Shown here in pieces: positions 5,614-20,024 of a stretch of 64,000 bases of DNA. The stretch is from Patescibacteria group bacterium (GTDB lineage Bacteria > Patescibacteriota > Minisyncoccia > Phycocordibacterales > UBA9973). Made by a program: the position numbers and the translations under genes. Under the pieces are notes generated by a model. The model searched no databases. It was not told the origin of the DNA and was given only the letters and a program-made list of their open reading frames with translations. The stretch lies in contig JBBTUE010000004.1 in the NCBI GenBank assembly GCA_038063915.1, positions 38,719-102,718 of the forward strand. Direction: 5' to 3'. The stretch's first letter is position 1. Every line of letters begins with the position of its first letter.

Positions 5614-6005
5614 GGGACTGACGGGCTTCGACAAAGGACCGTCCCATAGATGTGCGTGTCGAGTACTCAGAAATCTCGTTAAACTTTTTGAAAAAGACTA
5701 AGTGCAAACAAAGTCGCTTCAGCAAAATTATCTCCATACTTCGGTATGAATAATTTTGCTTTCGCATTAGCCTAACTTTAGGTCATGCGTTTGTCTACCT
5801 ATTAGACATCCGATATAGTGGGTAGGCATCATTCATCGGGTTACGAATTACAAACCGCTTGATTGTAGTTCCGACAATTAAGAGCTCGGTGTTCACTTTT
5901 TTTGTTTGTTCTCTAGAGTGAATATTTAAACCAATCGAACATTCTACACATGTAGACTCATCTATGAACATCTTTTGCATGGCGGTTCAACTCCGCCCAG
6001 TTCCA
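5614..6005 (+). ncRNA. ssrA: tmRNA (ssrA), immediately downstream of smpB
   Basis: The 5' gggactg pairs with the 3' cagttcc, including the tRNA-Ala-like G3:U70 wobble. The T-arm is ggcgg-ttcaact-ccgcc, discriminator A at 6005, and CCA is not encoded. An internal tag reading frame ends ...NNFAFALA-TAA at 5773-5775. The region is GC-rich relative to its flanks. Confidence 0.85.
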
Positions 6006-6069
6006 CAACTATTTCGATAAATTAAATATTGCTGTACAATAGAGATATTAATAATATACAAGTATTTTT

Positions 6070-6525: not shown

Positions 6526-8436
6526 GTGTATAATACCCATACTATGGATCCTAAAAAGAAAGCCCCACAACAGAAAAAGGTGCCTAATATAACCAATCAG
6601 ATCATAATTGCTATCTTCATATTCGCTAGTATTACCATTATTTACTCTATGGTCGCAAGTACGCCTTCCGAGGTGAAAAGCATGTCTATATCTGATGTGG
6701 CTAAAGGTATTAGTACTAGTACCATCGAGCGCATCGATGTATCTGGTCAAGATGTAAATGTGACTTTCAAAGATAAGACAAAAGGTATTGCAAAGAAAGA
6801 AGTCGAAAGCTCGCTCTCCACAACGCTATCAAACTATGGAGTCACAAAAGAAGAGCTCGCGTCCACTCCTATCGAAGTTAAAAGTGAGAGTGGTTTCTTC
6901 TACTGGCTCGCCAATGTCTTGCCGTTCTTGCTTCCAGTTATACTCATAGTATTTTTCATCTGGATGCTGACTCGCCAAGTCAAAGGCGCGGGTATGCAAG
7001 CTTTTACTTTTGGTCAATCAAAGGCTCGCATTACTGACCCAAATGATAAAAATAATCGCGTGACATTCAAAGATGTCGCTGGCGCAAAAGAAGCTAAAGA
7101 AGAATTGAAAGAAATTGTGGACTTCCTAAAGAATCCAAAAAAGTTTCTAGATATAGGTGCTCGTATTCCGAAGGGGGTGATTCTGACTGGTGCACCTGGT
7201 ACAGGTAAGACTTTGCTTGCAAGAGCCGTAGCAGGGGAGGCAAGCGTGCCATTCTTTCATCTGTCTGGTTCTGAATTCGTCGAGATGTTCGTCGGAGTCG
7301 GTGCTTCACGTGTGCGCGATTTATTTAAGATGGCCAAAAAATCTGCCCCAGCGATTATATTCATTGATGAGATCGATGCCGTCGGTCGTGTACGTGGCTC
7401 TGGAGTGGGTGGAGGCAACGACGAACGCGAGCAAACTCTAAACCAAATACTTGTCGAAATGGATGGATTTGAACCAAATGAAAAAGTGATAGTAATGGCA
7501 GCGACGAACCGCTCTGACGTACTTGATCCAGCGCTCCTTCGCCCAGGTCGCTTTGATCGCCGAGTAGTACTTGATCTGCCGGACCGGGCTGATCGTGAGG
7601 AAATACTTTTGATACATTCAATTAAAAAACCTTTCGCAGAAGATGTAAATCTAAAAGTTATTGCCGAGCGTACACCAGGGTTCTCTGGTGCCGACTTGTA
7701 TTCACTTATGAACGAAGGTGCGATACTCGCTGCCCGGGAAGATAGGAAAAAAGTCGCGCAGTTTGACCTAATCCGCTCAATTGAGAAAGTCATGATGGGT
7801 CCAGAGCGTAAGAGTCATTTACTTTCAGTTAAGGAAAAAGAAATCACGGCATACCATGAAGCAGGTCACGCACTTGTGGCATCGGTACTTCCTTATGCAG
7901 ACCCAGTGCACAAAGTATCAATAGTTTCTCGAGGAAGTGCAGGCGGATATACTCTAAAACTTCCACTAGAGGAACGCCGTTTACAAAGTAAGCGTGAATT
8001 CCTAGATGATATCGCTATGGCAATGGGGGGTTATGCTGCTGAGCAGATGATATTTGGTGACATTACGACTGGCCCATCAAATGATTTGCAAGTAGCGACA
8101 GGTCTTGCCCGAGCTATGGTTACACGTTGGGGAATGTCAGATGAGATTGGTCCGATAGCACTTGAGAGTGATGGGGGAAGAACAATGTTTGGCCGTGGGA
8201 TAAACGATCAAGAATACTCTGAGCGTGTCAGTGCGCTTATTGATGGGGAAGTTTCAAAAATTATGAATAATGCGCTAGCGCAAGCTGCAAAAGTACTTAT
8301 AGATAAGCGTAAAGTTCTTGATGCTATAGCTAAAAAACTTGTGGAAGTAGAGACACTCGAGCAAGATGAATACAATCAACTCATAATAGCCCATGGGATT
8401 ACTCCAAAGACTAAAGAAACAATAGTAAAAGCATAA
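6526..8436 (+). CDS. ftsH: ATP-dependent zinc metalloprotease FtsH
   Basis: N-terminal TM, Walker [22 protein letters not shown] region, HEAGHAL zinc site. Confidence 0.95.
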
Positions 8437-8437
8437 A

Positions 8438-8914
8438 ATGCTCAAAAAATTTTGGCAATGGTATGAAAGCAAGTACAAACTAGTCCTCTATACGACGACG
8501 CTTCTTTTCCTCATTCAACTTTTCCACTTATATTGGATGACGACAGACATTGTGATGTTCCGATTGTTCGGGCATATGTTTTTCCCAATTAGTCACTTTT
8601 GGCAGTTGATGATAGCTCTCGCTGACTATACTGAAATCCCAGCTATTATTACTGCATCAATTTTATACATTCACAATCTTCGCTCTGGCTTCAACTGGCG
8701 CAGTGTTCTGTTCCTCTTCCTTATAAATTCTCAATGGCTTCACCTTTTCTGGATTACTGATGAGATTATATATGCACAATTCACTGGTACAGCCCTCGTA
8801 GTACTACCAGTCTGGCTCTCGTGGATTGCCATCTCTATTGATTACCTAGAACTTCCCGTTATGTACGATACGATAGTAAAATCGATAAAGTCGTTGCGAA
8901 AGGTGAGTTCATAA
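8438..8914 (+). CDS. integral membrane protein, hypothetical
   Basis: Four predicted TM helices; no recognisable domain. Confidence 0.4.
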   Translation: MLKKFWQWYESKYKLVLYTTTLLFLIQLFHLYWMTTDIVMFRLFGHMFFPISHFWQLMIALADYTEIPAIITASILYIHNLRSGFNWRSVLFLFLINSQWLHLFWITDEIIYAQFTGTALVVLPVWLSWIAISIDYLELPVMYDTIVKSIKSLRKVSS

Positions 8915-8935
8915 GCTATAGTACATAAAGTATAA

Positions 8936-9009
8936 CCACCCTTAGCTCAGTTGGTTAGAGCACAGAGCTTATACCTCTGGGGTCCTTGGTTCGAATCCAA
9001 GAGGGTGGA
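8936..9009 (+). tRNA. tRNA-Ile (anticodon UAU)
   Basis: Hand-folded cloverleaf: acceptor ccaccct/agggtgg, D-arm gctc/gagc, anticodon stem cagag/ctctg with loop c-t-TAT-a-c, T-arm cttgg-ttcgaat-ccaag, discriminator A. Confidence 0.8.
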
Positions 9010-9019
9010 CATTCATAGA

Positions 9020-9073
9020 CTTCTCCGAAAAAATCGGTCGCGCGCAAGCGCGCGTCCCATTTTTTCGGAGAAG
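9020..9073. repeat. 54-nt near-perfect palindrome (15-bp outer stem plus inner CGCGCG stem)
   Basis: cttctccgaaaaaat-cggtcgcgcgcaagcgcgcgtccc-attttttcggagaag; the outer arms are exact reverse complements. It sits between tRNA-Ile and the left inverted repeat. Confidence 0.7.
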
Positions 9074-9079
9074 TTCAAA

Positions 9080-9245
9080 CTTGTCCTCTCATTCTAGCAT
9101 TTGCGCGAACCTTTTTCGAGCAGAAAGACCAAGAGAACCAATGAACTCCGCCACGCGCGAGTACGCGCGTCTGCCCTCGCCCACCACACTCTCCATGCAT
9201 ATTTAATTTCGCGGGGGACTCTTTTTGATTTGGTATGGGTGGGGG
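9080..9245 (+). repeat. left copy of a 166-bp inverted repeat (partner at 17007-17172)
   Basis: Hand alignment to the reverse complement of 17007-17172 gives 161/166 identities. The ORF-track entries 9075-9269(-), 9101-9343(+), 16932-17150(-) and 17051-17245(+) encode near-identical peptides because they lie in these copies. Confidence 0.9.
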
Positions 9246-9326
9246 CGAGATGTAAGTATATATTAACATTTAGAATTCAATTTAATACATTTGCAAAATG
9301 TGATAAATTGTCGCATAATATGAAAT

Positions 9327-11792
9327 ATGGAAGGAATATCTAATAAAGGCATAGAAAAAAAGGACGAAATCCCGAATTTTCACCAAATTTTTGAGGATAG
9401 GTTAAAAATAAAAAAAATAGTAAAGGATGAACTTGGACTTGATTTGGATAATATAAAGGAGAATTCAAATTCCCCTCTATATACTATTTTTGAGAAACAT
9501 TATAAACAGGAGTACGATGAATTAAATGAAAAGGCCAAGCAATTTAAAAAAGAAGATTTTAAAGACAGTGAAGGCAAGGCAAAAACAGAGTTACAAAAAC
9601 AAAAAATAGAATATGAAAAAAGTGGAGCGGAGAATATTCCCCAAATAAATTACGAAAAAATACTTGCGGACAATCCAGGATTAAAAGAAGTTTTAGATAC
9701 AAAAAGTGCTATCTGGGCTTTGAAAGATTTTAGAATGAAGCGAACATTTGAAATTTTAAATCCAAAAATAGGACTAAAGGTTAAAGAGAAAAACGAAAAA
9801 ATGCTTGGAACAATTCAAGCAGGAATAGAAGACAGTTATGATAAATTAGAAAACGAAGATCAAACCCTTGTTCGACAAGCAGAGTTACTGGAAAATAAAC
9901 AAAATTTGAGCGAGAGCGGGCATATCTGTATTGTTCCTTCTGTTGCAAAAGATTTGGAAGCTATTGGAGACAGGATGCTTACAGGCAAGCCCGTATTTCT
10001 TCACGGACCGACTGGTACTGGTAAAACTTCACTTGCTCGCTATGCGGCTGTTCATTTTACGGGCAAAGATTCTGAAATGGTTTTTTGTAACCCGCAAACA
10101 AAAGAATCAAATGTTTGGGGCAAGACAGGCATAAAACCAGCACCAGGGGGAGCGATTGAGACAGTAGAGATTTACGGTCCTCTTGCGAAAGCAATGGTAG
10201 AAGGCAAGACTGTAATTTTCGATGAATTTACAGCTCTACCAAAAGAGCAAATGGTGTTTATAAAAGGTATTTTCAACGCCAAAGTAGGGGATAAGGTAAA
10301 TATTGTTGGTAATGGTATGGTAGAAATACAGCCTGGCTTTCAGATGATTTTTACGGCAAACTTAAAATCTGAAAAAAATCCAGAGAGACAGGATTTACCA
10401 CCAGAAGTCGCTCGTGAATTTGAACAAAATAATATAAAAATCAATTATATAAACAAGGAAGAGTCATACGACGTTATGCTTTCTCGTATGCTGGGTAAAG
10501 ACGGTTCTTTGGATATGTCTTTTTATGATCTTAATACAACATTGCCAAATCTAGCTCGCGTGATGTCAGAAATACAGGAGTCTTATACTAACGCCACAGA
10601 CAAAGAAGTCGCCAGAAAAGCAGGGGCACTCGATGCTTCTGGTAAAGTTCACTCTTTGAAGAAATTTGTAATGACACAAGGTTCTATTGAAGCTATACTT
10701 TCTTCTTGGAATATAGAGAAAAAAATGAAAAGAACAGAAAAATCTTTTGCTGAATTTTTAGATGAAAGATTTAAGACTGCTTTGACTTTTGAAGAGTATT
10801 CAAAAGAAGACAGAATACTAGCGGCTAAGATTTTGGCTTCCCGTGGTTTTTTACTGACATTAACACCGAAAGAGCTTGGCTTGCCCGACGATGTTTTTAC
10901 CTTTAATACCATAAAAGCAATGCGTGGCGCTGATGCAATAGAGGAGCTAAAATTAGAATCTGGTAAAGTAAAACATTTAAATTTAAAAGAAGTTGCCGAA
11001 CTTGACCCCTTTGATAAGAGAGCATTGCTCATGAAGAAACAAGCTGAAGGACTTTTAGAGGGTGAAACTTTTAATAAAGACGAATTTTTGACTGCTTCAA
11101 GCAAAAGATTTAATAAAATTTTTGGTAAACAACCGTCAGCAGAAGTTATAACGACTACTTATAAACAAGAATCCATAAATTTAGATATAGAGAAAAAGCT
11201 CGAAGAATTTATCTCATTCTATCAACAAAGTAAGATAGACTTACCACCAAACTTTGAGAACGACATAAGGGAGATTTGGGATCGGAATGCAAATGATATT
11301 AAAGAAAGCATAGAACAGAATGGTTTTAATGATATTCTTTTGATGCCTGAAAATATGCCTTTGCCCGATCTTCACTCTAAAATGACCGAAGGATATACAG
11401 CTACATATCAAGGCGATAATTTTAAACAAGGGGGCTCGTTTGCAGGTGCCAAAAGTGAGAAAGTGGATAAACCTAGAATAGTTTTGGTTCATAAAACTCA
11501 AAACTTAAAAGACAATCCTGAACTTGCAAAAACCTTTAACATTAAAGGCGAGGATGCAATTAAATCTGAAATTCTAACTCTCGAGGATTACCTAGTTTTC
11601 CAACGAAAGTATTTTAAAGAAACAGGTAAACACTTAGACGAAGACGGTTGGACTTGGCTTGCCACAAAATCGGGCTCTCGTCTCGTCCACGCGGCTTGGT
11701 ATCCGGATGTTGGTCAGGTCGATGTGGATGCCCGTGGTCTCGGCGATCGGCATGGCGATCTCGGCGCTCGCCCTTCCCGCAGTTTCTACTAA
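9327..11792 (+). CDS. DGR target protein 1: N-terminal coiled-coil region, central MoxR/AAA_5-like AAA+ ATPase, C-terminal C-type-lectin-like variable domain (VR1)
   Basis: Walker A FLHGPTGTGKTSLARYAA, Walker B VIFDEFTAL, sensor IFTANL. The C-terminus GWTWLATKSGSRLV...LGARPSRSFY carries VR1. No signal peptide or TM. Confidence 0.85.
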   Translation: MEGISNKGIEKKDEIPNFHQIFEDRLKIKKIVKDELGLDLDNIKENSNSPLYTIFEKHYKQEYDELNEKAKQFKKEDFKDSEGKAKTELQKQKIEYEKSGAENIPQINYEKILADNPGLKEVLDTKSAIWALKDFRMKRTFEILNPKIGLKVKEKNEKMLGTIQAGIEDSYDKLENEDQTLVRQAELLENKQNLSESGHICIVPSVAKDLEAIGDRMLTGKPVFLHGPTGTGKTSLARYAAVHFTGKDSEMVFCNPQTKESNVWGKTGIKPAPGGAIETVEIYGPLAKAMVEGKTVIFDEFTALPKEQMVFIKGIFNAKVGDKVNIVGNGMVEIQPGFQMIFTANLKSEKNPERQDLPPEVAREFEQNNIKINYINKEESYDVMLSRMLGKDGSLDMSFYDLNTTLPNLARVMSEIQESYTNATDKEVARKAGALDASGKVHSLKKFVMTQGSIEAILSSWNIEKKMKRTEKSFAEFLDERFKTALTFEEYSKEDRILAAKILASRGFLLTLTPKELGLPDDVFTFNTIKAMRGADAIEELKLESGKVKHLNLKEVAELDPFDKRALLMKKQAEGLLEGETFNKDEFLTASSKRFNKIFGKQPSAEVITTTYKQESINLDIEKKLEEFISFYQQSKIDLPPNFENDIREIWDRNANDIKESIEQNGFNDILLMPENMPLPDLHSKMTEGYTATYQGDNFKQGGSFAGAKSEKVDKPRIVLVHKTQNLKDNPELAKTFNIKGEDAIKSEILTLEDYLVFQRKYFKETGKHLDEDGWTWLATKSGSRLVHAAWYPDVGQVDVDARGLGDRHGDLGARPSRSFY
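11671..11780 (+). repeat. DGR variable repeat VR1 (last 110 bp of target 1 before the stop)
   Basis: Aligns to TR 12053-12162 with no gaps. There are 16 mismatches, 15 of them at TR adenines (hand-counted). The GC-rich 3' end tctcggcgctcgcccttcccgc is conserved and resembles an IMH (initiation of mutagenic homing) element. Confidence 0.85.
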
Positions 11793-12052
11793 TTAGGTAG
11801 TTTGTAGTTTGGTATTTGTATTTTTTTTATTACTTTTGTTTTGTATTCGATTTTTTTTCTTCGGTTAGTATAACCACAAGCAATTGATTGGTTTACCGAA
11901 GTGCTTGGGATAAGTGAAAGATGGCCTTGTGTCAGATAATTTATTTTATGTAGAAATAAAAAAGAACTGCAGTTTTGTATTGGGGATGTAGCCCTGATTA
12001 ATAGAGTATGGTTTCCAATCTTGATACGGATAATACAAAGCTAAAAGTGGGG

Positions 12053-12162
12053 CGGGCTCTCGTCTCGTCAACGCGAATTGGAATCCGGATGATGGTCAGG
12101 TCAATGTGAATGCCAATGATCTCGACTATCAGAATGACAATCTCGGCGCTCGCCCTTCCCGC
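12053..12162 (+). repeat. DGR template repeat (TR)
   Basis: In the target frame it encodes GSRLVNANWNPDDGQVNVNANDLDYQNDNLGARPSR: AAY (Asn) codons at the positions that vary in the VRs. 24 adenines in 110 bp. Confidence 0.85.
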
Positions 12163-12166
12163 CGTT

Positions 12167-12544
12167 CTAAGTCGAATTTCTCGAATACTTTATCCAACCT
12201 TGGGTCATTTTTCCTATTTCTTGTAGTTTGCTTTCAATATCCAGATAAACTCTTGCTTCTAGTATTTCACAGTTTAAAGAAATTCTAAAAAGTATTTTCA
12301 GAAGCTCTATTTTTGAATTTGCTTGAGCCAAGACTTTTTCTTTTTCATATTTTGATACTTGATTGGCAAACACAAAAAGCTCAATTCCATCTAATATTGT
12401 TCTTTCTATTTTTTCTCCCAATGTGTATCTTTCGTGTTTTGGAAATTTAAAGATGAGTTTATGTGTAACCTCGTAGAGTACAAAGAGTTTTATTACAACC
12501 GGTATTTCTAATTTTGAGAAGTCCTTATGAGTATTGTTATCCAT
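12167..12544 (-). CDS. avd: Avd-like accessory variability determinant (four-helix-bundle / 23S rRNA IVS protein family)
   Basis: EIPVVIKLFVLYEVTHKLIFKFPKHERYTLGEKIERTILDGIELFVFANQVSK matches the DLxVWKKAxxL...FPKxEKYxLxxQIRRAAxSIxxNIAEG pattern of PF05635/bAvd. It is divergent from the RT, its 5' end overlaps the RT start by 18 bp, and its stop abuts the TR end. Confidence 0.7.
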   Translation of the reverse strand: MDNNTHKDFSKLEIPVVIKLFVLYEVTHKLIFKFPKHERYTLGEKIERTILDGIELFVFANQVSKYEKEKVLAQANSKIELLKILFRISLNCEILEARVYLDIESKLQEIGKMTQGWIKYSRNST

Positions 12545-13516
12545 AAAAGTTATGATGAATTATTTAGTCTTAATAATATGATTCTCGCGTGGAGAATTTT
12601 CAGGCGGGGAAAGACAAGAAAAAAAGATGTAATGGATTTTGAAATGCATTTGGAGGATAATATCTTTTCTTTATATAAAGAAGTAAAAAATGATAAATAC
12701 AAGCATTCATCATATACATATTTTCAGATTTTTGATAATAAGAAACGAGATATTTATAAGGCAGAGGTCAGAGATAGGATAATACATCAGATTATTTATG
12801 ATTATCTACTATCTTGCTTTGAACCTACTTTTATAGCGGACTCCTATGCTTCGAGGAAAAATAAAGGACAATATAAAGCTCTTGACACTTTTTGCTATTT
12901 TATAAAACTTGCTAGTAGTGCTGGCAAAGAATGTTTTGTCTTAAAATGTGATGTCAAAAAGTATTTTGACAGTGTAGATCACGATATTTTACTTGTTTTG
13001 ATAAAAGAAAAAGTTTCCTGTGAAAAAACCTTGAAAATAATAAAAGAAGTCATATCAAGTTATCGTTCATCTACTCCACCTCAAAAAGGTATACCCCTAG
13101 GCAGTATTACAAGCCAGATATTTGCCAATATTTATCTTAATGTATTAGACCAATATGTCAAAAAAGAATTGAAATGCAGATTTTATATCAGATACAATGA
13201 TGACCTCGTGGTTGTTTTTGAAAATAAAAAACACATAGTGGGCATCAGAGATAAAATGATTCTTTTTGTGAAAGAAAAGTTATTTTTAGATATACCTATC
13301 CCAAAAACAAGTATAAGAAAAATCAGATGGGGGGTTGATTTTCTCGGATTTGTAATTTTACCTCAAGCTATCTTACTTAGAGACAAAACGAAGAACAAAA
13401 TCTATTCAAATATAAAGAGGAAAAATATACACTCATATCTTTCCCTTTTAAATCATTGTAATTCTCACAATCTAAAAGCAAAGATTCTGTCGATGGAAAA
13501 AACATATAAAATTTGA
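12527..13516 (+). CDS. DGR reverse transcriptase
   Basis: RT motif A KKYFDSVDHDILL, DGR-specific motif B IPLGSITSQIFANIYLNVLDQYVKK, motif C YNDDLVV. It is ~330 aa with no maturase or endonuclease domain. Confidence 0.9.
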   Translation: MSIVIHKSYDELFSLNNMILAWRIFRRGKTRKKDVMDFEMHLEDNIFSLYKEVKNDKYKHSSYTYFQIFDNKKRDIYKAEVRDRIIHQIIYDYLLSCFEPTFIADSYASRKNKGQYKALDTFCYFIKLASSAGKECFVLKCDVKKYFDSVDHDILLVLIKEKVSCEKTLKIIKEVISSYRSSTPPQKGIPLGSITSQIFANIYLNVLDQYVKKELKCRFYIRYNDDLVVVFENKKHIVGIRDKMILFVKEKLFLDIPIPKTSIRKIRWGVDFLGFVILPQAILLRDKTKNKIYSNIKRKNIHSYLSLLNHCNSHNLKAKILSMEKTYKI

Positions 13517-13528
13517 TAGTATGGTGGC

Positions 13529-15496
13529 ATGGAAGGCATATCTATCATTGAAGCAAAAAAGGCCAAAAAAGAAGGCGAAACCACAGAAACAGGCAACCAT
13601 ACTGAAGCCTTTGCCTTTGTTGAGGAAAATCGAGACTTTTTTGAACACCATGCAAAAGGCAAGATAAAAATAGAACAAGCTCCCGAGGGCTTGGACACTT
13701 TTGCTTTTAATTTGGAAAATAACACTATCTATATCAATTCGATGTTTTATGAAAAGCTCGGCTTTTCTAAAGAAAGGACTATCTTCGCCACCTTGCACGA
13801 AATAGAGCATTTTTTAGAAAAAATTCAGATGCTTTCCGAAGACGGAGGAGAGAAAAATTTTGAAAAATACCTCAAGAAGATAGAAACTTCAAAAGCATTT
13901 GGTTTGATGGATAATTGTGTAGCGGATATTCGTGAGAACAGAACCGTAGTTTCCAAAACTAATAAAGGAATGAAGGATTTGGAAGAAAATATTTATAAAG
14001 AAGTTTTATTTCCAGAAACGGATTTTACTGAGTCTCCTCGCCATATACAATTTTGCCAAGCTATATTGCGTGAAGCAAGAGTAGAGGGCGAACAATGCGA
14101 TGTTTCGCCCGAGGTGCGACAGAAACTTGATGAACTTAAAAAAGTAAAAGGACTTATGAATATAATGACGAATCCTGAGACGCCGATGTCGACACGTTTG
14201 AAATTACAAGATAAATATATTTGGCCGAAAGTGGAGGAACTTTTAGAAAAGGATATTGAAGATAAAAAGAATAAGGAAAATAAAGACGAAAACAAGCCAT
14301 CTGATTCCCAAGATAAAAAAACAGGTGAGGGCAAGGACAATAAACCTGGTGAAAAAAATGATGACACTAAAGGTCAAAAAGGTGAGAAAGATGATAAAAA
14401 AGGTCAACAAAAAGGAAAACCTGAAAAAGGCGAGGTAAAGGAAGGTAACCCCAATAAAATTTTTGCTGATGAATATGAGAAAGCAGAAAAAAAAGTTCCC
14501 AACGCTATACCGATCGAAGATATAAAGAAAGCTTTTAAAGAATGGAAGGAAGAAAAACAGAAAAATAGTCCCGACAAAGCAGATGAGGAATATGCTGAAA
14601 AAATAGGTGTTGAAAAGAAAGATTTGCAAGAATACAGGAGGATTGCAGAAGCATTGCAGAAAATCGTGAATCCAGAAACAAATGTGAGTGTAATGGAAGA
14701 GTTAAAAAACCTTTTTTCAAGAATTATTTCCAAAAGACTCAAAGAGAAACTTGCTCCGAAATATCCAGTTGAAGAAGGCGATGAGTTGGCTGACCCTGCT
14801 CAGCTTGTGTCTGATGTAAAATCCGGCAATTTAAGTCCGAAAGTATGGGAAGATACTGAAATTAAGGAGAGAAAAGGCGACAAATTTGGCGAAGTTGAAA
14901 TAACTCTTATATGTGATAGATCGAGTTCTATGACTGATGGTAATGGTCAAAAAGCGGTTGAGCAAAGAAATTCAGCAGTTTTGATGATGGAAGTTTTGAA
15001 AGATTTTGCAGAAATGTGTGATGAGGAGAAAATGAAGGTGGATAAACCACTTCTAGTAAAATCTGAGATATACAGTTTTGCAAGTAGTTCAGAAGATAAG
15101 ACGCCTCTTAAAAAAATGGGGAAAGAACTCGGTGAAGCTGAGAGAATAAATGTTTTAAAAAAGCTTTTTGATTTGCCGGGTTCTACTACTGATTTTAATT
15201 GTTTGGAAGCTATTAACGAAGGACTGGACAATGAAACCAAACAAAAAATTGCAATAGGAGAATTAAAAAAGATAGTTTTTGTGTTTACTGACGGCGGGAG
15301 TGACAGCGTTGCGCGAGTACAAAAGGCCTTGAAAGGTTTGCGAGATGATGGTATAGTAGTGGTCGGTATTGGACTAACAGAAGCGGGAGAACCCGCAAAG
15401 ACAACGTATGCACCAAACGCGCAAGTAGTAAATAATGTTATTGATTTGCCTATTGTTTTAGGTGAATTGTTAAAGGAGCATTTAAAGGATATTTAG
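13529..15496 (+). CDS. vWA-domain protein with an N-terminal HExxH-containing region and a Lys/Glu/Asp-rich linker
   Basis: N-terminal TLHEIEHF. A K/E/D-rich low-complexity stretch lies at about residues 240-330. The C-terminal vWA domain has LICDRSSSMTDG (MIDAS DxSxS) and FVFTDGGSD. Confidence 0.75.
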   Translation: MEGISIIEAKKAKKEGETTETGNHTEAFAFVEENRDFFEHHAKGKIKIEQAPEGLDTFAFNLENNTIYINSMFYEKLGFSKERTIFATLHEIEHFLEKIQMLSEDGGEKNFEKYLKKIETSKAFGLMDNCVADIRENRTVVSKTNKGMKDLEENIYKEVLFPETDFTESPRHIQFCQAILREARVEGEQCDVSPEVRQKLDELKKVKGLMNIMTNPETPMSTRLKLQDKYIWPKVEELLEKDIEDKKNKENKDENKPSDSQDKKTGEGKDNKPGEKNDDTKGQKGEKDDKKGQQKGKPEKGEVKEGNPNKIFADEYEKAEKKVPNAIPIEDIKKAFKEWKEEKQKNSPDKADEEYAEKIGVEKKDLQEYRRIAEALQKIVNPETNVSVMEELKNLFSRIISKRLKEKLAPKYPVEEGDELADPAQLVSDVKSGNLSPKVWEDTEIKERKGDKFGEVEITLICDRSSSMTDGNGQKAVEQRNSAVLMMEVLKDFAEMCDEEKMKVDKPLLVKSEIYSFASSSEDKTPLKKMGKELGEAERINVLKKLFDLPGSTTDFNCLEAINEGLDNETKQKIAIGELKKIVFVFTDGGSDSVARVQKALKGLRDDGIVVVGIGLTEAGEPAKTTYAPNAQVVNNVIDLPIVLGELLKEHLKDI

Positions 15497-15512
15497 TTAT
15501 ACAATACAAAAC

Positions 15513-16481
15513 ATGGAAAACATATCAAAAATGGCAAAAGCCCCAGAAAAGGCAAAGAAACCTGAAAAGTCTCAAGCAGAACTTCGCCAAGCCATAGAAG
15601 AGCGCCTTTTCGGAATGAAAGGAACTATTAAAGGTGTTATGGAGGAATACAAGCAAGCTTTAGAAGAAGAAACATTTCTAGATAAACAAGGCGAAGAAGA
15701 AGGAAACGGAGAAAAAAGAAGGGAAACAATGCAAGCTAAAATAAATGCGTTCCTTGATAAAGCGGAACAAATGAAAACGAAGTTAGATAGCAAAGAAAAA
15801 TTACCTAACTACACAGAATCAATATCTACTAATTACACTCATCCAGATAATAAAGTAGAAAATATCACTTTCTCTCTGGAAGAAAAATTAGAGGAAAATA
15901 TCGCTATCTACAAAAAAACCAAATTAGACTTGCCTCCAGATTTTGAAGATCAAATCAAAGAAATTTGGGAAAATAATATTGATGAAATACAAAAAGCAAT
16001 GCAAGAGAAAGGCTTTGATGAAATGCTTCTCGTACCTGGCAATATCCCCTTAACAGAATTAAATACTAAAATGACGGATGTATATACTGAAACGTGGGAA
16101 GACAGCGACTTCAAATCTGGCGGTTCTTTTACTGGTGCTAAAAGTGAAAATGTAAATAAACCACGTATAGTACTTGCTCACAAAACTCAAAATCTTGAAG
16201 ACAGACCAGAACTCAAGAAAACTTTAAATATAAAAGGTAAGGATGTAAAAAAGGATCAAACATTAACTTTAGAAGACTATCTAATATTTCAAAGAAAATT
16301 CTTTGAAGAAACCGGCAAACATTTGGATGAATCAGGCTGGACTTGGCTTGCCACAAAATCGGGCTCTCGTCTCGTCTACGCGGATTGGTATCCGGGTGGT
16401 GGTCTGGTCGGTGTGGTTGCCGGTGGTCTCGACTTTCAGATTGACAGTCTCGGCGCTCGCCCTTCCCGCAGTTTCTACTAA
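15513..16481 (+). CDS. DGR target protein 2: coiled-coil N-terminus, paralogous C-type-lectin-like variable domain (VR2)
   Basis: The C-terminal ~180 aa (DLPPDFEDQIKEIWENN...GWTWLATKSGSRLV...GARPSRSFY) is paralogous to the target 1 C-terminus. The 30 bp upstream of the VR and ~75 bp of 3' flank are near-identical to the target 1 locus. Confidence 0.8.
   Translation: MENISKMAKAPEKAKKPEKSQAELRQAIEERLFGMKGTIKGVMEEYKQALEEETFLDKQGEEEGNGEKRRETMQAKINAFLDKAEQMKTKLDSKEKLPNYTESISTNYTHPDNKVENITFSLEEKLEENIAIYKKTKLDLPPDFEDQIKEIWENNIDEIQKAMQEKGFDEMLLVPGNIPLTELNTKMTDVYTETWEDSDFKSGGSFTGAKSENVNKPRIVLAHKTQNLEDRPELKKTLNIKGKDVKKDQTLTLEDYLIFQRKFFEETGKHLDESGWTWLATKSGSRLVYADWYPGGGLVGVVAGGLDFQIDSLGARPSRSFY
16360..16469 (+). 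repeat. DGR variable repeat VR2
   Basis: 16 mismatches to the TR, all at TR adenines (hand-counted). It differs from VR1 at many of the same positions. Confidence 0.85.
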
Positions 16482-16539
16482 TTAGGTAACTTGTAATTTG
16501 GTATTTGTATTTTCTTTTCTTTTTTATTTTGTATTCGCA

Positions 16540-17006
16540 TTTTTTTACCAGGGAGTGATTCTATCGTGCACGCACGGGTGGGTAAGTCCGCGCGTAATCG
16601 CGCGGACTGGGGCAAGCACGAGAGATGTGAGCCTTCGGGCATTACCGCTAGTGGCGTCCATGACTAAAGGATGAGCGCCGAAGAAAAACGAAGTCAGAGA
16701 AATCTAAAAGCGAAAGCGACACACTAAATATAATAATGAAAAGCGTAGAGTGGGGGTGGCGAGGGCGGACTGCTGTAATCAGCAGAGCCCGACCCGGGGA
16801 GAGGAAACTTCCTCTCCCTAAGAGGAAGCGGGCAAATTGCCCGCACAGAGGCACCTAGGCGCGAGTAGCCCTAGCGGTAATGCCCGAGGCGGATGCCGAG
16901 GGTGACACCCCTTTAGTTCGGACATCCTATTTTATAATGAACGAAGGCACCGATGTATTTGGGTTTGAATTCCGCCGCTTCTTCTTAAAAGAAGCCTGAC
17001 CGAGCC
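16540..17006. ncRNA. GC-rich structured non-coding island; candidate structured RNA, family unassigned
   Basis: ~58% GC inside a ~35% GC genome, with no credible ORF. Many hairpins, e.g. gtccgcgcg-taat-cgcgcggac (16590) and a long-range pair ggcattaccgctag(16641)/ctagcggtaatgcc(16876). A G-rich-plus-tetraloop-hairpin motif at 16758 recurs inside the inverted repeat at 17062. Confidence 0.3.
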
Positions 17007-17172
17007 CCCCACCCATATCAAATCAAAAAGAATCCCCCGCGAAATCAAATATGCATGGAGAGTGTGGTGGGCGAGGGCAGACGCGCGTAGTCGCGCGCGG
17101 CGGAGTTCATTGGTTCTCTTGGTCTTTCTGCTCGAAAAAGGTTCGCGCAAATGCTAGAATGAGAGGACAAGC
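17007..17172 (-). repeat. right copy of the 166-bp inverted repeat (partner at 9080-9245)
   Basis: 97% identical to the left copy in inverted orientation. Two of the five differences lie in one hairpin and preserve it: an A-U to G-U change and one loop change. Confidence 0.9.
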
Positions 17173-17271
17173 GAAGCTTGTCCAAGGCGGAGGCAGACGT
17201 GCCAAGCCGGGGTCGCGAGATTTTTCAGCAGAAAAATACTTGTGACGACAAGTAATGTTATAATTTAACTT

Positions 17272-17784
17272 ATGAATTCGGTAGATATGATAAAGATTAG
17301 TCGTGATAAAGGTTTCACACTTATAGAGCTTTTAGTTGTTGTCTCAATAATTAGTTTCCTATCCAGTGTCATATTTTCAACCTTAAACAATGCAAGAGTA
17401 AAAGCTCGAGATTCAGCAAGAATTCAAGATATGCATCAAATGCAACTTGCTTTAGAGCTTTATCGTTCGGCCAATGGAACTTATCCAGTAGGCGGATGGT
17501 TGTATAGTTATGATGCTAGTTGGAATACATTACAAACTGCCCTGACCCCCTATATGAAAACTTTACCAAAAGATCCAAAAAATAGTGCGATTGATCCATG
17601 GTGGACTGGTAATTACACCTATGCATATTATTTTGGTGGTGCATCAAGTTACGATTTAGTGACCCAACTAGAAGATCAAAATAATAAATATAGATGTGAA
17701 CTTAAGCAGTGGATGTTTTATAATGCTGGATCTTCTTGGTGTAGTATAGGTTATAGTAATTATATTTATACAGGCCACCAGTAG
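17272..17784 (+). CDS. type IV pilin-like protein (prepilin-type N-terminal cleavage/methylation domain)
   Basis: KGFTLIELLVVVSIISFLSSVIF class-III signal peptide. Confidence 0.8.
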   Translation: MNSVDMIKISRDKGFTLIELLVVVSIISFLSSVIFSTLNNARVKARDSARIQDMHQMQLALELYRSANGTYPVGGWLYSYDASWNTLQTALTPYMKTLPKDPKNSAIDPWWTGNYTYAYYFGGASSYDLVTQLEDQNNKYRCELKQWMFYNAGSSWCSIGYSNYIYTGHQ

Positions 17785-17795
17785 TATTAATTAAT

Positions 17796-20024
17796 TTACT
17801 CAAAATGTAAATCTAAATTTTTATCGGCAAGGGTTTTTTCAAGTAGGGGAAGGGAGGCGAGAGTGGAATCTTTTTCTATAAGTTTAATTGCTTCAGTTCG
17901 CGCAGCCTCTACCATTTTAATATTTTTTATCGCTTCCATGCCAAGATCGGTGATGCCCCATTGCTTATCTCCAGAGAGTAGCCCTGCACCACGTAAAGAA
18001 AGATCTAGTTCTGCGAGCTCAAATCCACTACTGGCTTTCACCAATGCTTTCAACCTATCTACAGTTTTATCAGTCTTCGCATCAGCAAATAAGTAACAGT
18101 ATGATTGATGAGTACTTCGGATAACACGTCCTCGGAGCTGGTGAAGCTGTGCCAACCCAAAGCGCTCGGCGCCTTCTATAATGATAGATGTAGCATTCGG
18201 AACATTTACTCCTACTTCGATAACAGATGTTGAAACAAGGATGTCTATCTCATGGTCTTTGAATTCTTGCATGATATCTTCCTTTTTTTGTTTAGTCATC
18301 TTTGAGTGCATGACACCAATGCGATATTTAGGAAAAACTTCTTTCGCAAGACGCTTTGCTTCAGCAAGAACTGATTTTGCTATCACAGCTAGCTCCTTAT
18401 CTGGATCGGGTTCATTTATGCGCGGACAAATCACATATACTTGCCTGCCATTTTCTAATTCAAGCCGGACTTTTTCATAGGCCTCTTCTCTTTTGTTTGG
18501 TGACACAATTTCTGTAACAACTTGTTTACGACCAGCGGGCATCTCGTCAATAATACTTAGATCTAGATCACCATAAATGGTTAGTGCAAGTGTCCTAGGG
18601 ATAGGAGTCGCAGTCATAGAAAGGTAATGCGGGGCGTGGCCTTCTTTCTTGGCAAGTTTCATACGCTGATTAGTACCAAAGCGATGCTGTTCGTCTATTA
18701 TTACTAGTCCTAAGTCTTCAAATTCTACAGTCTTGGATATTAGGGCGTGAGTACCTATGACTATTGGTATCTCGCCGTTCTTTACCCATTTGAGGAGTTG
18801 GTTCCTTGAAATCGGAGTCCAAGTTCGGACTTGCTTTCCATTTTCGAAGTGGGCGCTCTTACTTGGGAATTTTCGACAGCCACTGCCTGTAATAAGGCCG
18901 ATGGATATGCCAGTGTGATCAAAGTATTCTATAAAACTCTCATAAAGTTGGGTGGCGAGAACTTCAGTCGGAGCCATGTAAGCAACTTGTAAATTACCGA
19001 AATTCTGCCCTGTCGGTCTATTTTTTATTACTGCATAAGCAACTGTTGCGGCGACAAATGTCTTGCCACTACCGACGTCGCCCTCGATAAGTCGGGACAT
19101 CGGTTTATCTTTTTTAAAATCATCCAAAATAGTGCGAATAACATCACTCTGCGCTTTTGTTGGAGTGAAGGGAAAGCGAGAGATGAAATCTTTAATATCT
19201 GTCTCTGGGATTTTAAGCTTATAGGAAAATAGTTCCTCGTACGCTTTACGTTCCTGCTGGCGTGCAAGCTGGATGAAAAATACTTCCTCGAAAGCGAAAC
19301 GCTTGCGAGCAATCTCGGAATGCTCGGCCTTTTGTGGCATATGTATCCACACAAGGGCCGTATGGAGGGCTGGTAATTTATATCTAGAGATAATATCAGT
19401 GGGTAAGTAATCAACAATATCTTTGGTACAACTTTGTTTGAGTATCTTCTCTACAGCGTGATATATCCATTTCGAAGTTATTCCTCTCGATTCTCCATAA
19501 ATTGGATATCCAAACTGGTGCCCCCGCTCACCTTTTTTAAAAAGTGAATCGTGAATATCAATTGGCAGTATATCCTCGGGATTTATCTCTGGATTCGTTA
19601 GGGTTAGTCCATAAGTTTTATGGTTGGATATTTTCCCAGTGACTCTGACTGTAGAGCCTTCCTTTAGCATTTTTGCTAAATATGGCTGATGAAACCAAAT
19701 GATATTGATTGAACCAGTTAAATCAGAGAGCAGTGCCTGGCCCATAGGTATTTTACTCTTCCAACCTTTCTTGGCTTTAAGTTTAGAAATTGTACCTAAA
19801 ATTGTGGATGTCTCACCCTCTATAAGGTCACTAATATTTTTTACCTCCGATATATCTGTATATCTAGAGGGGAAGTAATAAAGTAAATCACGAATAGTAT
19901 GAAGTCCTAGTCGCGCCAGAGCTCTCTTTTGGTTGGTGTCAATTCTAAACTGTGTTTCAAGTTTATCGTGGAGCTGCATAGTTTGAAGATGGAGGTTTAC
20001 TACCTCCATACATGACAATACCAC
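17796..20024 (-). CDS. recG: ATP-dependent DNA helicase RecG
   Basis: N-terminal wedge/OB region, helicase motifs GDVGSGKTFVAA and DEQHRFG, C-terminal helicase domain; ~740 aa. Confidence 0.85.
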   Translation of the reverse strand: MVLSCMEVVNLHLQTMQLHDKLETQFRIDTNQKRALARLGLHTIRDLLYYFPSRYTDISEVKNISDLIEGETSTILGTISKLKAKKGWKSKIPMGQALLSDLTGSINIIWFHQPYLAKMLKEGSTVRVTGKISNHKTYGLTLTNPEINPEDILPIDIHDSLFKKGERGHQFGYPIYGESRGITSKWIYHAVEKILKQSCTKDIVDYLPTDIISRYKLPALHTALVWIHMPQKAEHSEIARKRFAFEEVFFIQLARQQERKAYEELFSYKLKIPETDIKDFISRFPFTPTKAQSDVIRTILDDFKKDKPMSRLIEGDVGSGKTFVAATVAYAVIKNRPTGQNFGNLQVAYMAPTEVLATQLYESFIEYFDHTGISIGLITGSGCRKFPSKSAHFENGKQVRTWTPISRNQLLKWVKNGEIPIVIGTHALISKTVEFEDLGLVIIDEQHRFGTNQRMKLAKKEGHAPHYLSMTATPIPRTLALTIYGDLDLSIIDEMPAGRKQVVTEIVSPNKREEAYEKVRLELENGRQVYVICPRINEPDPDKELAVIAKSVLAEAKRLAKEVFPKYRIGVMHSKMTKQKKEDIMQEFKDHEIDILVSTSVIEVGVNVPNATSIIIEGAERFGLAQLHQLRGRVIRSTHQSYCYLFADAKTDKTVDRLKALVKASSGFELAELDLSLRGAGLLSGDKQWGITDLGMEAIKNIKMVEAARTEAIKLIEKDSTLASLPLLEKTLADKNLDLHFE

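Follow-up and report, generated by a model that had tools for sequence, protein, structure and literature searches.

Gene content of the locus

We analysed a 64,000-nucleotide stretch of DNA (the window) from a Patescibacteria group bacterium (assembly GCA_038063915.1, contig JBBTUE010000004.1), in which positions 9327-16481 had been predicted from the letters alone to hold a complete diversity-generating retroelement (DGR) with two target genes. Five intact open reading frames (ORFs) lie in this segment. The first, target 1 (T1; 9327-11792, plus strand), codes for an 821-aa protein in which a MoxR-class AAA+ ATPase is fused to a C-terminal variable domain of C-type lectin (CLec) type, and contains near its 3' end the first variable repeat (VR1; 11671-11780, plus strand). 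It is followed by a structured RNA domain (11859-12042, plus strand) and, directly 3' of this, by the template repeat (TR; 12053-12162, plus strand), which lies outside any long ORF on that strand. Next come avd (12167-12544, minus strand; 125 aa) and the gene for the reverse transcriptase (RT; 12527-13516, plus strand; 329 aa). Two further plus-strand genes complete the cassette, one coding for a 655-aa HExxH-vWA protein (13529-15496), the other, target 2 (T2; 15513-16481), for a 322-aa protein with an N-terminal helical hairpin and a variable domain of the CLec/formylglycine-generating enzyme (FGE) fold, which carries the second variable repeat (VR2; 16360-16469, plus strand).

To judge from its sequence, the locus is almost certainly a DGR, because all the defining components are present and intact and the adenine bias described below recurs in 13 related loci. 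The fuller description - an intact, chromosomal DGR of the TR-(avd)-RT type found in the candidate phyla radiation (CPR), set within a MoxR-vWA module, and with the mechanism and the cytoplasmic-sensor reading given below included - is in our judgement very probably right.

Adenine-specific divergence between template and variable repeats

Computational alignment of TR to VR1 and VR2 is gap-free, as originally proposed, and reproduces exactly the mismatch counts that had been made by hand: VR1 differs from TR at 16 positions, 15 of them TR adenines, and VR2 likewise at 16, every one a TR adenine. The VR1 differences comprise nine A to G, four A to C and two A to T changes plus a T to G change at TR position 12127, while those of VR2 comprise ten A to G and six A to T changes. 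With 24 adenines among the 110 nt of TR (a count that also stands), the enrichment of mismatches at adenines is overwhelming (hypergeometric P = 1.6e-11 for VR1 and 1.1e-13 for VR2). The same three-copy family (11671-11784, 12053-12166 and 16360-16473) was recovered by an independent repeat search of the window. Altogether 22 of the 24 adenines are altered in at least one VR and nine are altered in both; the earlier statement that the VRs carry different bases at many of the same sites was too strong, since six of these nine carry the same base.

When TR is translated in frame (GSRLVNANWNPDDGQVNVNANDLDYQNDNLGARPSR), each of its 24 adenines occupies the first or second position of a codon, in most cases an AAY Asn codon. 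No stop codon can arise through substitution of a TR adenine, and about 1.7e14 peptides are reachable per VR. The same specificity extends across the family: over 14 loci with 29 VRs, TR adenines account for 393 of the 433 TR-VR mismatches, and the non-adenine remainder consists mostly of C to A differences at the 3' boundary of the repeats.

This boundary has the form expected of an initiation of mutagenic homing (IMH) site in the VRs and a non-identical counterpart (IMH*) in TR. The final 22 nt (TCTCGGCGCTCGCCCTTCCCGC), a GC-rich block that had been picked out as invariant and IMH-like, are indeed identical in TR (12141-12162), VR1 (11759-11780) and VR2 (16448-16469). Homology continues for 4 nt past 12162, to 12166, broken by a single C to A difference at 12163 that is common to both VRs, so that the first base to distinguish the putative IMH* from the putative IMH copies is C in TR and A in the VRs; this difference recurs in most related loci. 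Beyond the 22-nt block the 3' flanks of VR1 and VR2 are alike, and the TR flank is unlike either. The description of the VRs as the last 110 coding bp of their genes does not hold literally, as three extra codons (SFY) intervene between each VR and its stop codon.

One observation counts against a fully canonical DGR: no significant hairpin was found in the roughly 120 nt that follow VR1 and VR2, nor any terminator-like site after the VRs or around TR. A GC-rich inverted repeat (cruciform) 3' of IMH is an accessory feature, which occurs in about 34% of DGRs and is dispensable for assignment to them (PMC5758913).

Where the VR bodies depart from TR at a thymine, the change is nearly always T to G, and in most cases it lies at 5'-TA-3'. 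Conversion of TAT to GAT (Tyr to Asp) recurs in six VRs of four loci (the window and the related loci L001, L025 and L098) with the flanking adenines re-randomised, the instance in the window being TR T 12127 against VR1 G 11745. The recurrent T to G change may stem from a second kind of RT error, or may reflect strong selection (for Asp).

Reverse transcriptase and accessory protein

The original prediction placed an RT with a DGR motif and an Avd gene beside TR, and both are present in intact ORFs. The RT belongs to Pfam RVT_1, and the motif IPLGSITSQIFANIYLNVLD lies within its ORF. Its IPLGSITSQ and YNDD motifs correspond to the [I/L]GxxxSQ signature (as LGSITSQ) and the intact YxDD expected of a DGR RT and, together with its best solved match, mark it as a probable DGR RT. 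That match, the closest in a search of all solved structures, is 8ub7_A (E = 7.8e-34), which aligns with RT residues 9-296, spanning IGSxTSQxFAN and YxDD. We take this 328-aa chain, labelled 'Reverse transcriptase', to be the bRT of the Bordetella phage, on account of its size and of the motif IGSLTSQLFANVY. In the same search the RTs of group II introns and retrons reach about 1e-16, and the grouping with these enzymes that would have spoken against a DGR is thus not what we see. A look-up of the exact RT protein sequence matched no contig.

The Avd protein passes the cut-off of the Pfam bAvd model (1.8e-15; 57.8 bits against a cut-off of 40), and matches NCBIfam DivGenRetAVD at 1.3e-19 with 70.5 bits, below the curated cut-off of 80. 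As expected for an accessory protein (Avd or HRDC), its gene adjoins both TR and RT. The placement first given requires one correction, however: avd adjoins TR as described, but is antisense to the TR/RT strand and overlaps the start of the RT gene head-to-head by 18 nt.

A structured RNA domain upstream of the template repeat

Between the T1 stop codon and TR lies a 260-nt noncoding stretch whose conservation over 10 loci, at 0.72-0.91 for each 20-nt bin, is on a par with that of coding sequence; relative to L001 it is 90-97% identical, and TR is 97% identical. RNAalifold, applied to 13 sequences, predicts three helical elements at 11896-12042. The predicted pairing holds for 95.7% of cells, with compensatory change at 13 of the 33 pairs, a level that no shuffle out of 500 attained; slid controls gave 0-5. 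The G-U pairs favour the plus strand. An extra 5' hairpin, CTTCGG (11859) with CCGAAG (11896), was read from the sequence and stands outside the structure predicted and counted. Rfam gave no match to the domain at gathering score or E<=1 (search of 8900-17300).

Two predicted pairings would connect the upstream RNA with TR itself: a duplex of the invariant GAACUGC (11964-11970) with GCCGUUC at the 3' edge of TR (12161-12167), and a pairing of GGGG (12049-12052) with CCCU (12153-12156), these TR-edge duplexes showing two compensatory events only. In the Bordetella phage BPP-1, RNA on both sides of TR wraps the RT-Avd complex, and a duplex between upstream and downstream RNA is functionally important (bioRxiv 10.1101/2023.10.23.563531). 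The RNA 3' of TR in our locus is antisense avd coding sequence with weak covariation. This counts against the mechanism proposed below, and it makes the 5' domain the likely platform for RT-Avd; we regard that domain as the probable protein-binding part of the DGR RNA. Its covariation support suggests how DGRs with an inverted avd assemble an RT-Avd-RNA complex.

The mechanism that we propose begins with a plus-strand transcript, which would comprise the structured 5' domain, TR and sequence antisense to avd. By analogy with BPP-1, RT-Avd would bind this transcript and copy TR into cDNA with random incorporation opposite adenines, and the cDNA would then replace VR1 or VR2, the IMH block setting the 3' boundary of the exchange.

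Target proteins and their vWA partner

Residues 222-348 of T1 (MEK7585985.1) match Pfam AAA_5, of dynein/MoxR type (2.7e-12), and more weakly bpMoxR (0.0051), and homologues retain both the Walker A (GPTGTGKT) and the Walker B (VIFDE) motif. The closest solved chain to this AAA domain is NorQ, a MoxR-family ATPase that acts with a vWA partner. A vWA protein is likewise encoded in the cassette: it matches Pfam VWA (4.6e-8), and combines an N-terminal HEIEH motif with a C-terminal vWA domain in which the MIDAS (DRSSS...TDG) is intact. The motifs HE[IV]EH, DxSxS and TDG are invariant in all 14 of the homologues compared, and the HExxH hints at a peptidase; no solved relative was found by sequence.

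The C-terminal 260 aa of T1 are paralogous to T2 (MEK7585989.1), and neither this region nor T2 matches any Pfam family, FGE-sulfatase and DUF1566 included. The T2 family has 223 members of about 322 aa, hypervariable exactly at the VR columns, and those that are named by taxon come from metagenome-assembled genomes (MAGs) of Patescibacteria. The predicted model of the VR-bearing domain confidently adopts the CLec/FGE fold; the figures listed for its fold relatives are 8.3 for OvoA, 7.5 for SUMF2, 7.2 for both TvpA and EgtB, 6.4 for Mtd and 5.0 for TaqVP, with many animal C-type lectin-like domains at 5-6. Sequence identity to TvpA (2y3c), Mtd (1yu0), TaqVP (5vf4) and proteins of the FGE family is 8-16%, and the window domain differs from all of these in adding family-specific N-terminal helices and strands. 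On this model, the VR sits at the 3' end of its target and in a variation-tolerant fold (CLec or Ig), as is expected of DGR targets. The fold of the AAA-linked VR classes of CPR (UVR) was left open by Wu et al. 2018 (PMC5758913), and structure prediction now points to CLec/FGE for this formerly unclassified class.

Relatives of the cassette

The order T1 (AAA-CLec), TR, (avd), RT, HExxH-vWA, T2 is found across contigs of Patescibacteria, and all relatives come from Patescibacteria/Paceibacterota MAGs. About 82% nucleotide identity is maintained across differing genomic contexts, which shows that the cassette has been inherited and moved as a unit. L001 shares the surroundings of the window (SmpB, tmRNA, FtsH, tRNA-Ile and RecG), whereas L002 is about 82% identical over window positions 9289-16535 only, and lies among genes for methyltransferase, tRNA-Thr and ribonucleotide reductase. 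In L158, L159 and L161 the cassette is found amid housekeeping genes. Some cassettes have three targets (L009, L159), and some have inserted genes (L158).

Certain arrays of AAA-T1, vWA and T2 genes have neither RT nor avd in the DNA fetched (L019:2555-10181, L032:7028-12289 and L010:1463-5417), and contain up to four VR-type genes. Such arrays may have lost their diversifier, or may be served by one that acts in trans. The existence of such arrays suggests that the MoxR-vWA-CLec module is the functional unit - at least it looks like one - and that TR-avd-RT is its diversifier. Large serine recombinases are found near related DGR cassettes in L037 and L009.

Possible persistence of homing

Many adenine sites distinguish the VRs of the window from those of L001 though the two TRs are 97% identical, which indicates that diversification continued after the two lineages split. 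We infer that homing may be ongoing, or may have been so until recently, as originally proposed. The strongest competing explanation is that the DGR is a fossil, its VRs having been diversified formerly and being now ordinary fixed alleles without homing. Several observations favour this explanation over continued homing. VR2 of the window is found unchanged in two other, independent groundwater assemblies of the same aquifer (L004 and L005, which are 99.9% identical), and the exact T1 and T2 proteins occur on 2-3 contigs, with no near-identical variants bearing other VRs in the protein collection. No population-level VR heterogeneity was seen among the sequences compared, these being assembled low-coverage consensus sequences that probably represent one population. 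Furthermore, the non-adenine T to G change is common to VR1 of the window and VR1 of L001.

The nature of the assemblies itself reduces the force of these observations. Moreover, a fossil is not readily reconciled with five intact ORFs, conserved RT catalytic motifs, Walker motifs and MIDAS, with a TR in which every adenine still falls at the first or second codon position, or with differences between the window and L001 that postdate the lineage split. We consider the fossil explanation unlikely, though it is the best placed of the alternatives.

Genomic position of the element

The cassette is bracketed, together with a structured noncoding RNA of about 400 nt that we call RNA X (16545-16945, plus strand), by inverted repeats of 166 nt, the left arm (9080-9245) being 97% complementary to the right arm (17006-17171). 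Homologous arms flank the cassette in L001 (3551-3692/11541-11709) and L098 (1-65/8911-8975), while those of L002 are 200 nt long (418-617/8186-8385) and begin inside the 3' end of tRNA-Thr(GGT). The left arm adjoins the 3' end of a tRNA gene in each of three cases: tRNA-Ile in the window (tRNA-Ile(TAT), 8936-9010, plus strand, identified by ARAGORN and Rfam) and in L001, and tRNA-Thr in L002. Such adjacency of X or the arms to a tRNA is seen at some loci only. There are five differences between arms within a genome compared with 12-15 between orthologous arms, and this greater likeness within genomes points to gene conversion between the arms.

The right arm is continuous with conserved sequence after X in many genomes, arm sequence follows X in about 20 loci, and large serine recombinases occur near X in about 20 loci. 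X usually follows directly upon a gene of about 250 aa with a P/E-rich N-terminus and a winged-helix-like C-terminus; in the window this gene is missing and X follows T2. Contigs that carry both arms without a DGR are informative as to what else the position may hold: L114 (1391-7174) has a DNA methylase, a ResIII helicase and Shedu between the arms, and L083 (1288-7057) has Shedu and an ABC transporter. Among 148 ORFs upstream of X (loci L039-L157), the commonest families are restriction-modification (R-M) methylases (C5, N4/N6 and D12), ResIII, Eco57I, type I S subunits, Shedu SduA, HNH and SocA/Panacea.

As the arm-bounded cargo elsewhere is defence-related, the DGR/MoxR-vWA cassette of the window lineage occupies a variable, defence-rich position. 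This position could be an invertible or mobile defence slot. This picture is not general, however: the cassettes of L158, L159, L161 and L030 have no such inverted-repeat arms, and some relatives lie amid housekeeping genes with neither RNA X nor inverted repeats. No inverted isomer of the repeat-bounded segment was found in the fetched metagenome loci, none being at least 90% identical to the window.

The arms were also considered as RNAs in their own right, but this was not obvious from their folding (z -1.7 and -1.2), and Rfam gave them no match at gathering score or E<=1. Between tRNA-Ile and the left arm (9019-9074) stands a hairpin with a perfect 27-nt stem (ACTTCTCCGAAAAAATCGGTCGCGCGC / GCGCGCGTCCCATTTTTTCGGAGAAGT), which is absent at the orthologous site of L001. 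Further neighbours in the window are tmRNA (5614-6008), FtsH (6526-8436), a type IV pilin-like gene (17272-17784) and RecG (17796-20024). The pilin-like gene is outside the inverted-repeat unit and is absent at the equivalent place in L001. The GC content of the cassette is lower than that of its flanks.

Function and origin of the element

From their domain content, the diversified domains would be cytoplasmic ligand sensors, fused in T1 to the MoxR-class AAA+ ATPase and standing alone in T2 behind the helical hairpin, and both proteins would form, with the HExxH-vWA protein, a module for conflict or defence, and would be neither surface adhesins nor phage tail fibres. No transmembrane segment or signal peptide was detected in T1, T2 or the vWA protein, whose hydropathy over 19 residues peaks at 1.04-1.14, whereas the adjacent pilin reaches 2.57. 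In addition, a cytoplasmic conflict-sensor role is favoured by the R-M and Shedu genes that other genomes carry at the corresponding place next to X. DGR-diversified MoxR-vWA conflict systems, the 'VMAP ternary' systems, are known from cyanobacteria and gammaproteobacteria, where CLec/FGS is fused to the vWA protein (PMC7159879, PMC10907252), and an ATPase has been suggested to transduce the signal sensed by a variable domain (Dore et al. 2024, PMC10907252).

There are also reasons for restraint. The case for defence is one of guilt by association and absent export signals. PADLOC, run on the cassette, returned only generic RT matches and a weak AAA match, and among the five cassette proteins neither Pfam nor PADLOC revealed a third VMAP component (no VMAP, peptidase, TIR or adaptor). 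Taking domain content, missing export signals and genomic context together, we put a cytoplasmic sensor or defence role at somewhat less than an even chance. A more elaborate proposal is that the DGR provides the adaptive part of an immune sensor in CPR bacteria, a cytoplasmic MoxR-vWA-metallopeptidase, which in the window lineage is housed in a tRNA-adjacent, arm-bounded and possibly invertible or mobile defence slot marked by X (here of about 430 nt) and the winged-helix gene, and that in CPR DGR RNAs a structured 5'-TR domain pairs with the 3' edge of TR, in place of a 3' spacer, so as to position RT-Avd; it is offered tentatively, and is appreciably less probable than the sensor role taken alone.

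The classic proposal for DGRs of CPR is that the variable proteins are surface adhesins, by which an episymbiotic cell attaches to changing hosts. Dependence on host cells is presumed for CPR bacteria, the CLec-fold DGR targets Mtd and TvpA are surface or receptor-binding proteins, and the pilin-like gene lies just downstream of the cassette. Nonetheless, the lack of export signals and the low hydropathy of all three proteins are difficult to square with a place at the surface, as is the fusion of T1 to an ATPase of cytoplasmic type. The pilin gene moreover lies beyond the inverted-repeat unit and is missing from L001, and the equivalent position elsewhere is taken by R-M and Shedu genes. Adhesins thus seem improbable to us, slightly more so than a fossil element.

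Far less probable is a phage-borne element that switches tropism in the manner of the Bordetella BPP-1 DGR. Viral DGRs are numerous, two of the related cassettes have large serine recombinases nearby, and the cassette has a lower GC content than its flanks. Against this, neither a relative of T2 nor a copy of RNA X was found in the 2.9 million contigs of IMG/VR, there are no phage structural genes in or beside the cassette (the neighbours being FtsH, tmRNA, tRNA and RecG), and the target N-termini are AAA+ or coiled-coil, not tail-fibre domains. Roux et al. (PMC8144416) place most CPR DGR RTs in a cellular clade, and the absence of T2 relatives from IMG/VR is in keeping with that placement.

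Finally, although sub-threshold NCBIfam/PADLOC matches to the RT models of group II introns, Drt and retrons, with no DGR-RT family among the NCBIfam matches listed, might suggest that the RT is that of a group II intron, a retron or a defence system (DRT) and the three repeats mere remnants of gene duplication, we dismiss this with hardly any reservation, given that those matches are all far under the curated cut-offs, that a DGR RT is the best solved match by 17 orders of magnitude, that Avd adjoins the RT, that neither a group II intron nor a retron RNA was found by Rfam in the region, and that duplication remnants would be expected neither to differ at adenines only nor to have a noncoding copy as the conserved one.

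Comparison with known systems

According to Wu et al. 2018 (PMC5758913), 90% of CPR DGRs have the arrangement TR-(avd)-RT, termed B3, which hardly occurs outside CPR. The window has this architecture - TR, a reverse-strand avd and RT, in a CPR host - and resembles CPR B3 DGRs in gene order, host phylum, targets with an AAA+ N-terminus and a VR at the C-terminus, multiple targets and chromosomal location; we find no essential difference between them. Wu et al. 2018 also record matches between the CPR 'UVR4' targets and an AAA domain of Midasin type, and a passage of Dore et al. 2024 (PMC10907252, citing Paul et al. 2017) gives AAA-ATPase-CLec as the commonest target architecture in CPR. CPR DGR RTs form a separate clade (PMC10907252), and a cellular CPR clade 2 is described by Roux et al. 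2021 (PMC8144416). The locus belongs to the commonest class of DGR reported from CPR, and is a good example of that class, not a new kind of system. What our analysis may add to the B3 literature is the CLec/FGE model, the combination of a constant HExxH-vWA protein with a small second target, the RNA 5' of TR and the arm-bounded subclade with X, some of which is perhaps already contained in Paul et al. 2017.

BPP-1 (mtd-avd-TR-brt) is alike in its adenine-specific transfer, its use of Avd and RT, a C-terminal VR in a CLec fold and a GC-rich IMH-like block, and the window RT aligns with bRT over 288 residues that include IGSxTSQxFAN. The differences are nevertheless considerable. BPP-1 is phage-borne whereas the window element is cellular, and in the latter avd is inverted, so that antisense avd lies 3' of TR instead of a dedicated spacer. 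The window element has a conserved structured RNA 5' of TR and no hairpin after its VRs, and in place of a tail-fibre target it has two targets, with AAA+ or coiled-coil N-termini.

With the MoxR-vWA (VMAP) systems, including that of Thiohalocapsa, the locus shares a MoxR AAA+ ATPase, a vWA/MIDAS protein and a co-encoded, DGR-diversified CLec/FGS sensor, as well as proteins predicted to be cytoplasmic and a defence-like context. However, VMAP systems fuse the variable domain to the vWA protein, and the window fuses it to the MoxR ATPase. The window vWA protein bears HExxH, no VMAP, trypsin, caspase or TIR domain was detected, and the hosts of VMAP systems are multicellular bacteria, in contrast to the reduced CPR cell of the window. 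Two components of a VMAP ternary system, the MoxR AAA+ ATPase and the MIDAS vWA protein, are therefore in place and the third is not. Because of the MoxR fusion, the HExxH-bearing vWA protein and the lack of a detectable VMAP protein or effector, we file the locus with the known CPR DGR class: it works like the VMAP ternary systems but is not a member of them.

The value of the locus lies in part in its being a clean, complete, two-target example of the dominant CPR DGR class, suitable as a reference, with a cassette small enough to be a candidate for reconstitution. That a MoxR-vWA module is found where other genomes keep R-M and Shedu genes supports an immune-sensor reading for the commonest 'dark matter' DGR targets. 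The more novel leads are RNA X, the inverted-repeat position and the RNA domain 5' of TR.

RNA X

RNA X is a neighbour of the DGR, not a part of it, and is not specific to DGRs. It is GC-rich, with a minimum free energy of -168 kcal/mol (z -7.6), and conserved sequence runs on beyond it to about 17179. Rfam gave no match at gathering score or E<=1 (8900-17300), and only chance-level matches at E<=10 (16500-17200). RNase P, the signal recognition particle RNA, 6S RNA and group II domain V were rejected as identities by informal inspection of conserved motifs.

An invariant 20-mer of X occurs in at least 119 metagenome contigs, and a sequence profile finds X in 117 of 119, most copies being full or near-full length. 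L002 has a mini-X of about 190 nt that is without the central domain. Sixty non-redundant copies contain 13 covarying pairs (for example, one that is UA in 29 copies and GC in 27, and another that is CG in 35 and UA in 23). The many G-U pairs in these 60 sequences place X on the plus strand, a question that four sequences were insufficient to decide. Large, structured, unannotated and abundant in Patescibacteria, X is worth a study of its own.

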